DNA from: a virus
Lineage: Duplodnaviria > Heunggongvirae > Uroviricota > Caudoviricetes
Length of the DNA stretch: 40,873 nucleotides
Virus record (IMG/VR): IMGVR_UViG_2609460344_000022
Reading direction: 5' to 3' (one strand)
In this document: piece by piece, positions 17,317 to 18,000 of the stretch
Layout of the letters: each line of letters begins with the position of its first letter
Position numbering within the stretch: the first letter of the stretch is position 1
Notes under the pieces: generated by a model
Told to the model about the DNA's origin: nothing
What the model saw: only the letters and a program-made list of their open reading frames with translations
Databases searched by the model: none
Made by a program: the position numbers and the translations under genes

Positions 17317-17496
17317 ATGAGCTACGCACTAAAAAAACACCCGCGATTGACTATTCCCCCTCGCGATAAAAGCGTTGTGGCAGCTCCGCGCCCGGCTATC
17401 GATGAAAATTGCACTCATCGTGAGCAGGTGAAAAATGCTTTCGATTTCGGTTTTTCTCGTTACGAGAAGGCAATGGAAGAACTTTCAAAAGTGTAA
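17317..17496 (+). CDS. Putative antitoxin partner of Doc-like toxin (59 aa)
   Basis: Small ORF with GGAG/AAGGG SD, ending 18 nt before Doc-like gene; no recognized family. Confidence 0.4.
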   Translation: MSYALKKHPRLTIPPRDKSVVAAPRPAIDENCTHREQVKNAFDFGFSRYEKAMEELSKV

Positions 17497-17514
17497 TGAT
17501 GGGTATTGTGCTCT

Positions 17515-18000
17515 ATGGCTGATATTGTTGAAGGAGTGCACTACCTTTCGTTTGATGATCTTACCGAAATTAATCGCCTTTTAATTGAGCTTCAAACACC
17601 AGATGAACCTGTTAGTGTGCTGAGTGTTGATAATTTAAGTTCTTCTCAGTCTCGTCCCAGCATGGTTCGATGGTATGAACAGACTAATGACATGTTTGTA
17701 CTGGCATCAGTATTGATTGAAAGTCTGATTCAGAATCATCCATTTGCTAATGCAAACAAACGAACAGCTATGATGGCTGGTTATGTCTTCTTGTTGTTGA
17801 ATGGCTATGAGTTAACAGCACCAGGCGATGAAATCGTGGAAATGGCAGAGGGACTGGCCTGCAAAACCTATACTCGAGAAGATCTCGAGAACTGGTTGTG
17901 TTATTGGTCTCGTGCGTATGACGGCCGGGAATTATGTAAAACAGGCGCAACTGTTGTTTTGTATGAAACTATCAAGCTTAAAATAGAACAGCAAAACTAA
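17515..18000 (+). CDS. doc: Doc/Fic-family toxin
   Basis: 161 aa; motif HPFANANKRTAMMAG matches the Doc-type Fic motif HxFx(D/N)ANKR. Confidence 0.75.
   Translation: MADIVEGVHYLSFDDLTEINRLLIELQTPDEPVSVLSVDNLSSSQSRPSMVRWYEQTNDMFVLASVLIESLIQNHPFANANKRTAMMAGYVFLLLNGYELTAPGDEIVEMAEGLACKTYTREDLENWLCYWSRAYDGRELCKTGATVVLYETIKLKIEQQN

Follow-up and report, generated by a model that had tools for sequence, protein, structure and literature searches.

A putative minimal antitoxin encoded upstream of a Doc-family toxin in a lambdoid prophage

A two-gene cassette in the nin region

We analysed a stretch of DNA of 40,873 nucleotides (nt), IMG/VR virus record IMGVR_UViG_2609460344_000022 (Caudoviricetes), referred to below as the window, and within it a pair of plus-strand genes that runs from position 17317 to position 18000. 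The DNA belongs to a lambdoid prophage of E. coli, the pair lies within the nin region, and the 1.7 kb around it match the chromosome of strain cM8a, and those of the O104:H4 outbreak lineage, at 99.8-99.9% identity. The second gene encodes a Doc (death-on-curing) family toxin of 161 amino acids (aa), and the first a 59-aa protein that, judging from comparison and analogy, is very probably a minimal antitoxin. The antitoxins usually described for Doc toxins are of Phd type and both neutralise the toxin and repress the operon. The two genes and the elements within them are as follows.

17317-17496, plus strand: gene for the 59-aa partner, a putative minimal antitoxin (WP_000119356.1; PHROG 2208)
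17344-17370, plus strand, codons 10-18: N-terminal motif R-L-T-I-P-P-R-D-K, recognised from family conservation
17416-17487, plus strand, codons 34-57: single long amphipathic helix predicted by AlphaFold, the proposed Doc-binding and neutralising element
17515-18000, plus strand: doc, which encodes the 161-aa Doc family toxin (WP_000818160.1 or a near-identical protein)
17737-17763, plus strand, codons 75-83: HPFANANKR, the Doc-type catalytic motif HxFx(D/N)(A/G)NKR, read directly
17893-17937, plus strand, codons 127-141: W-L-x-x-W-S-R-x-x-D-x-R-x-L-C, a conserved, clade-specific segment followed by a variable tail

Both open reading frames (ORFs) are in the same frame, the first extending from the ATG at 17317 to the TAA at 17494-17496 and the second from the ATG at 17515 to the TAA at 17998-18000. 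The gap from stop to start is 18 nt here and 3-10 nt in the orthologues, and no promoter or terminator was found between the small gene and doc. A preliminary description of this DNA, made from its letters alone, had placed a 59-aa ORF with a good Shine-Dalgarno sequence ahead of the Doc gene, and such an element, AAGGG, is indeed present at 17303-17307, 9 nt 5' of the first ATG. No similar element precedes doc, a hint that the two genes are translationally coupled.

By sequence, the 161-aa protein is a Doc-family toxin and an ordinary member of that family. It matches the hidden Markov model TIGR01550 DOC_P1 at 122.1 bits (cutoff 38.65 bits), with residues 11-130 covering the full profile, and the Pfam Fic model PF02661 at 44.4 bits (cutoff 24 bits). 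The Doc-type Fic motif reported in the preliminary description is intact at residues 75-83, and H75, F77, N79, N81, K82 and R83 are invariant among 30 Doc homologues. Equally invariant among these homologues are W127, L128, W131, D136, L140 and C141 of the C-terminal segment, which lies largely past the end of the 126-aa P1 Doc. The closest solved relative is the Doc of Enterococcus faecalis (9vzc; E = 1e-12, residues 6-116), and P1 Doc (3k33) is more distant (E = 1e-4 over residues 53-115). An AlphaFold model of Doc alone, built from a shallow alignment, was all-helical and of low confidence, with a predicted local distance difference test score (pLDDT) of 52.5, and Foldseek against the PDB returned noise only; it is the sequence matches that support a Fic/Doc fold. 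PADLOC gave only weak PDC-S23 matches for this protein.

Conservation of the small gene and its linkage to doc

The small protein carries the RefSeq label 'hypothetical protein' in every genome. Searches of Pfam, NCBIfam and PADLOC returned no match to it (in Pfam and NCBIfam none even at E <= 1), and its one family assignment, PHROG 2208 (143.9 bits over positions 1-59 of 59), carries the annotation 'unknown function'. The preliminary description had suspected an unrecognized antitoxin family and proposed a profile search as a check; with PHROG 2208 the only family to emerge, and with the strict linkage to one Doc clade described below, that suspicion of an unrecognized family held up. A word-indexed search of 5.8 billion clusters found 17 clusters with relatives of the small protein. 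A profile search of 1.84 billion representatives gave 39 matches, 37 of them genuine and all 38-95 aa long, and among those representatives there was no longer protein that contains the sequence as a domain.

Codon comparison shows that the small gene is real. In pairwise comparison of 8 orthologues, the proportion of differing synonymous sites (pS) is 0.35-0.99, near saturation, while that of nonsynonymous sites (pN) is 0.01-0.24 over the gene and 0.00-0.11 over its last 23 codons. Because synonymous sites are so nearly saturated while pN stays low, the ORF is not a product of chance, and the gene is under purifying selection. Two elements stand out in the alignment. One is N-terminal, L11-x-I13-P14-x-R16-D17-K18, in which I13, P14 and R16 are each conserved in at least 90% of members family-wide; the other is C-terminal, Q37-V-x-N-A41-F42-x-x-x-F46-x-R-Y49-x-K-A52-M53-x-x-L56-S-K-V59, in which A41 is invariant and L56 is found in 36 of the 37 members. 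The length of the protein and both motifs are kept from E. coli to Pseudomonas.

The small gene keeps its place beside doc in widely differing surroundings. It lies immediately upstream of a gene of this Doc clade in Ewingella, Providencia, Morganella, Kluyvera, Salmonella, Serratia and Xenorhabdus, where the Ewingella copy of the cassette sits inside a myovirus tail module, the Salmonella copy between tail genes and next to KilA-N genes, and the Serratia copy against Bro-N/pRha genes. The order is the same in two Pseudomonas aeruginosa phages, with the small gene directly 5' of Doc near the integrase end, in a distant metagenomic member, and on all 80 of 80 IMG/VR viral contigs. Both genes are intact and adjacent at 94 of 94 loci, from prophages and phages of Enterobacterales and Pseudomonas. 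The small protein occurs there in 33 different sequences and Doc in 47, and by upstream sequence the loci form 19 unrelated clusters. Since close relatives are numerous among the loci, what counts as independent evidence is roughly 19 contexts and 10 genera, not 94 events. The two proteins diverge in step: between Pseudomonas and the window the small protein is 53-56% identical and Doc 55-58%. On comparative grounds, such strict and context-independent linkage to a Doc clade is the signature of a cognate antitoxin.

Phages and prophages are essentially the only carriers of the cassette, and plasmids are all but free of it. It occurs in 125 of 5426 complete E. coli genomes (2.3%), always on the chromosome and including the O104:H4 outbreak lineage and O157:H7, and in one of 72,556 plasmid records, that record being 4 Mb in size.

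Some of the remote copies have features of their own. The distant metagenomic member (L020, positions 705-1920) has a two-Fic arrangement: after the small gene and the gene for a 145-aa Doc comes that for a second Fic/Doc-like protein, 242 aa long, whose motif reads HCFHNGNKR. The cassette of the Pseudomonas phages Sirocco and LPPA56 directly follows the integrase gene, with the Sirocco copy close to the tRNA-Ser genome end, and tandem GTTGACA repeats stand about 90-115 nt 5' of the small gene, a regulatory context that differs from that of the enterobacterial copies.

A candidate neutralising helix and its relation to known antitoxins

AlphaFold, given the 37-sequence family alignment, predicts the small protein (mean pLDDT 79.9) as one helix spanning residues 34-57, along which pLDDT climbs from 79 to 95. 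Residues 1-33 are proline-rich and have no predicted secondary structure, with a pLDDT of about 84 over residues 11-20. The conserved C-terminal positions V38, A41/F42, F46, Y49, A52/M53 and L56 form a hydrophobic stripe along the helix. There is no recognisable DNA-binding domain.

A helix of this kind is how characterised Doc antitoxins reach their toxin. In P1 and Salmonella Phd, residues 52-73 form the neutralising helix that lies in the Doc groove, with hot spots at F56, I/L59, M/F60, H/L63, L67 and L70, of which F56 and L70 have been termed 'gatekeepers' (PMC9207808). In E. faecalis Phd (EFPhd), a bent C-terminal helix of residues 52-79 binds the concave face of Doc (PMC13034048). In Corynebacterium the SUMO-stabilised 'Phd-C' element of PanA suffices alone for neutralisation of Doc, and antitoxins made solely of a neutralisation element exist (PMC10440598).

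The window pair shares with P1 Phd-Doc (PDB 3K33, 3DD7) the Doc catalytic motif, an antitoxin-first gene order, tight spacing and carriage by a temperate phage. The spacing of F56 and L70 in P1 Phd, whose sequence we verified, recurs in F42 and L56 of the small protein, in each case an aromatic residue and a leucine 14 residues apart with the leucine 3 residues from the C-terminus. P1 Phd, however, has an N-terminal YefM-fold dimerisation and DNA-binding domain (PF02604) that the 59-aa protein lacks; the window Doc is 35 aa longer than P1 Doc and carries the conserved W-L-x-x-W-S-R segment; and P1 is a plasmid prophage that uses its module for addiction, whereas the present cassette is found in integrated prophages.

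The E. faecalis pair (PDB 9VZC; PMC13034048) offers the closest solved Doc and a helix match. As query we used peptides 54-64 and 65-78 of EFPhd as given in that paper, joined into 25 residues with contiguity assumed. Over all offsets, the best ungapped match of EFPhd 54-78 falls on small-protein residues 34-58 (BLOSUM62 score 18), with H34 opposite H54, E55-L56 opposite E75-L76 and the hydrophobic positions paired. The two proteins part company at the N-terminus, where EFPhd has a beta-sheet DNA-binding domain that reads a palindromic operator and the small protein has a 33-residue proline-rich segment with no predicted fold. With PanA_Phd-C:Doc(D6) of Corynebacterium doosanense and the 'linear neutralisation' antitoxins of NetFlax (PMC10440598) the small protein would have in common a short, portable, helical Phd-C-like element as the whole neutralising part; in PanA this element is appended to a globular Panacea domain, whereas in the window it would be essentially free-standing, with a short conserved N-terminal motif added.

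Other affiliations were considered and set aside. Membership of the small protein in the Phd/YefM family finds no backing, as there is no PF02604 match and hhalign against a P1-Phd alignment gave a probability of 1%, in keeping with the earlier remark that the partner does not resemble Phd. The same remark extended to YhfG, and rightly so: the sequence has no Pfam or NCBIfam match and lacks the motif (S/T)xxxE(G/N). Class I Fic antitoxins act through an inhibitory (S/T)xxxE(G/N) helix on AMPylating Fic enzymes. YhfG-Fic and other class I pairs resemble the window's pair in having a small-protein gene ahead of that for a Fic-fold enzyme, but their targets are AMPylating enzymes with HxFx(D/E)GNGRxxR, and the window pair has neither that motif nor (S/T)xxxE(G/N). 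A likeness noticed by eye between residues 9-23 of the small protein (PRLTIPPRDKSVVAA) and residues 372-386 of EF-Tu (LRFAIREGGRTVGAG, verified) was rejected as mimicry and put down to chance, because the hand-summed BLOSUM62 score is about 8 and the serine that matches T382 is not conserved.

We propose that the pair is a phage-borne type II Doc module in which the 59-aa partner, small and largely disordered, is the cognate minimal antitoxin and bears the neutralising helix, and we give this reading a probability of about 0.7. The toxin-antitoxin (TA) relationship rests on comparative genomics and analogy: small gene first, tight spacing and linkage together make up the type II pattern. As we envisage it, the 59-aa protein would be made first from the shared transcript, probably with translational coupling to doc, and the Fic-fold Doc kinase would phosphorylate EF-Tu and arrest translation as P1 Doc does. 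The 24-residue C-terminal amphipathic helix would dock in the concave groove of Doc in the manner of Phd-C, which model and analogy together suggest as the most likely mechanism of neutralisation, and the N-terminal L-x-I-P-x-R-D-K could provide a second contact, or a regulatory or degradation signal. The cassette would move as a unit, a 'moron', among temperate phages of Gammaproteobacteria. Toxicity, target, binding, neutralisation and biological role are all things that we infer; as to the role, prophage maintenance or exclusion of other phages is most plausible, rather than plasmid addiction, because the cassette is restricted to integrated temperate phages and all but missing from plasmids.

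Several observations weigh against this proposal. The i/i+4/i+7 spacing of the hydrophobic stripe is common to any amphipathic helix, and the most conserved residues, I13, P14 and R16, are not part of the helix. Similarity to EFPhd 54-78 was noticed post hoc and is only nominally significant (shuffle p = 0.004 at fixed register, 0.029 at any offset), and the P1 Phd helix 51-73 scores 3 in register and 14 at another offset (p = 0.06). The hhalign alignment to P1 Phd spans 8 columns and is out of register, and a search for Phd chains with the family profile found none at E <= 10. A consensus scan of the window's upstream region gave no promoter. Finally, a gene in another lambdoid prophage (loci L021 and L022, positions 2501-2653) encodes a 50-aa homologue of the small protein (MMNIPLRNKNIVAVPRP...YRYEKTMKKLSEV) and has no Doc gene nearby; this orphan may be a remnant, or a factor directed against Doc. 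One weak family member also has no Doc gene after it, on a contig that ends about 180 nt further on.

At the orphan locus itself, the 50-aa ORF overlaps the end of a DUF1187 gene; beyond it come a terminator and, in convergent orientation, TM2 and hok genes.

Rather than founding a new family, the 59-aa protein might be a severely reduced modular Doc antitoxin, either of AbrB/MazE type or of Phd type with Phd-C, in which case 'LTIPP' would be what is left of the 'V-x-I-P' strand of AbrB, and residues 34-59 would be true Phd-C homologues. The mechanism would be the same as in the reading we favour and the evolutionary label alone would differ. This idea draws on the expected register of the best ungapped match to the Doc-binding helix of EFPhd, on LTIPP with VRIPA as the sole local match that hhalign gave against an AbrB/MazE alignment, and on the fact that the antitoxin of that closest solved Doc has a beta-sheet DNA-binding domain (PMC13034048). 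MazE-Doc composite modules do exist: TasA-TasB of Bacillus thuringiensis pGI1 pairs a Doc with a non-Phd antitoxin, and 'LTIPP' superficially resembles the AbrB/MazE 'V-x-I-P' strand (PMC1626090). Yet TasA has a full MazE/AbrB domain, and the small protein, considered as a member of AbrB/MazE/SpoVT, has no match to PF04014, which all AbrB/MazE control sequences match; hhalign put it at 0.4%. Together with the 1% obtained for Phd, the lack of any Pfam or NCBIfam match even at the permissive threshold, and the lack of longer intermediates among the 1.84 billion representatives (real matches are all short), these results make the reduced antitoxin unlikely in our view.

A different course for the N-terminus is conceivable, and we hold it to be decidedly unlikely. 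Here L-x-I-P-x-R-D-K would extend to the catalytic loop of Doc and inhibit the enzyme at its active site or much as a pseudosubstrate does, or would act as a sensor or degron released on superinfection. If the sensor or degron version were true, the phage would carry in this cassette a switch for abortive infection or exclusion that works without transcriptional autoregulation, and the orphan copies in other prophages would be anti-Doc countermeasures.

The pair might also not be a TA system at all, the Doc-like kinase serving instead as a phage effector in lytic growth or lysogeny, for example in host takeover or anti-defence phosphorylation, with the small protein as a specificity factor, activator or co-regulated accessory and not an inhibitor. 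Its near-complete confinement to phages and prophages fits such a role, as do its placement in lytic-cycle transcription units (the nin region, tail modules), the PHROG category of the Doc family ('moron, auxiliary metabolic gene and host takeover') and the fact that no autoregulatory operator was found in the window. We consider it improbable: a tight, co-diverging layout with the small gene first and 100% co-retention is the classic type II pattern, and all studied Doc proteins with this catalytic motif are growth-arresting toxins that require an inhibitor (PMC9207808, PMC13034048, PMC10440598). As for a chance or non-functional ORF beside an orphan toxin, small size and the lack of an annotated domain are all that speaks for it, and it is already refuted by dN far below dS, by length and motifs conserved from E. 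coli to Pseudomonas, by the PHROG 2208 match and by an intact gene at every one of the 94 loci.

The proposed TA module, if correctly read, would be a real but modest extension of a well-known kind. We found no mention in the literature of WP_000119356, WP_000818160 or phrog_2208, although guilt-by-association surveys may list the pair anonymously; the peptide motifs of the small protein are absent from the supplements of an E. coli TA survey, and the motif and both accessions are absent from those of NetFlax. The partner would represent an undescribed antitoxin family, by design like a free-standing Phd-C to which a short motif has been added. The literature already contains the concepts of linear, portable neutralising elements and of single-domain antitoxins, and the understanding of TA systems would stay unchanged. 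What would be added is a widespread phage-borne Doc clade, spanning phages of E. coli, Salmonella, Serratia, Providencia and Pseudomonas, whose 56-60-residue partner consists of a free neutralising helix and a short conserved motif. It would illustrate in nature the idea of the 'linear neutralisation element alone', would offer a very small peptide scaffold with which to study or inhibit Doc kinases, and would give a name and a function to PHROG 2208 and to the 'hypothetical protein' beside every such Doc gene.

Upstream DNA, cassette edges and neighbouring genes

The following features flank the cassette.

17176-17195, plus strand: left terminator hairpin and 20-nt direct repeat (AACCCGCTTCGGCGGGTTTT), an intrinsic terminator after hok and the left cassette edge
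17196-17316, plus strand: upstream untranslated region, with TTGACT at 17267-17272 lacking a matching -10 and AAGGG at 17303-17307
18015-18036, either strand: right terminator hairpin, bidirectional between the convergent doc and helix-turn-helix (HTH) genes, containing the second copy of the 20-nt repeat (18017-18036), and the right cassette edge
18051-18368, minus strand: intact HTH partner (HTH_3/MqsA-like) of the RelE-like gene, downstream of that gene and convergent with doc
18423-18793, minus strand: RelE-like (PF06296) toxin gene downstream of the cassette, split by one frameshift

The idea of a conserved operator ahead of the small gene was rejected. The sequence ahead of the cassette is unrelated from one lineage to another, the similarity to some E. 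coli relatives sets in exactly with the ATG of the small gene, and the best inverted repeat in the window's own upstream region has 6 pairs and is not above chance (shuffle p = 0.5). Classical antitoxin autoregulation is therefore doubtful for the window's copy, given a small protein without a recognisable DNA-binding domain and an upstream region without an above-chance palindrome or a consensus promoter. Across lineages, palindromes are enriched overall over shuffles (sum 136 against a null mean of 111).

The copies from Providencia and Morganella (L004, L006, L007) have a 22-bp palindrome, TAATGAAAsTTAAsTTTCATTA, about 60-95 nt 5' of the small gene. It sits between TTGACT and a TATAA-like -10 and shows paired changes between species, and is likely an operator, one that is absent from the E. 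coli window.

The hairpins on the two sides of the cassette contain identical copies of the 20-nt sequence, a perfect direct repeat. Homology with hok-carrying lambdoid phages that lack the pair, such as mEp460, ends at 17196, right after the left hairpin, and the same terminator hairpin is found 3' of doc in a prophage without an upstream hok (L025, 3699-3720). The terminators seem to act as mosaic junctions at the cassette edges.

On one flank of the cassette lie replication genes, DUF977, DUF551 and hokD, and on the other an ORF6N antirepressor gene, ninB and Q. The preliminary description had recognised a hok gene and a decayed RelE module beside the Doc gene, and had called the region a toxin/addiction hot spot. 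Both neighbours are confirmed. The adjoining upstream hok/sok pair is matched by Pfam HOK_GEF (82.6 bits) and by the Rfam model for sok (110 bits); the RelE-like gene has profile positions 1-34 of PF06296 in the ORF at 18476-18793 and positions 18-95 (98.6 bits) in that at 18423-18680, RefSeq annotating only an 85-aa piece. The hot spot is borne out to the extent that hok/sok and the frameshifted RelE/HTH pair do flank the cassette; as the same cassette occurs elsewhere without them, what the clustering reflects is that the nin region of lambdoid phages has slots for cargo ('morons'), not that these genes form a functional unit.

Further along the plus strand, at 18821-19019, Rfam models match for c4-a1b1 (47 bits), isrK (74 bits) and C4 antisense RNA (75 bits). 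These RNAs directly precede an ORF6N/P22_AR_C antirepressor gene (ORF 19073-19738), and RNAs and gene together make up a P1/P7-style antirepressor unit under C4 antisense control inside a lambdoid nin region. On the other side, between the DUF551 gene and hok/sok, lies a plus-strand ORF of 51 codons (16551-16706), an internal 34-codon version of which is the hypothetical protein WP_001278450.1.

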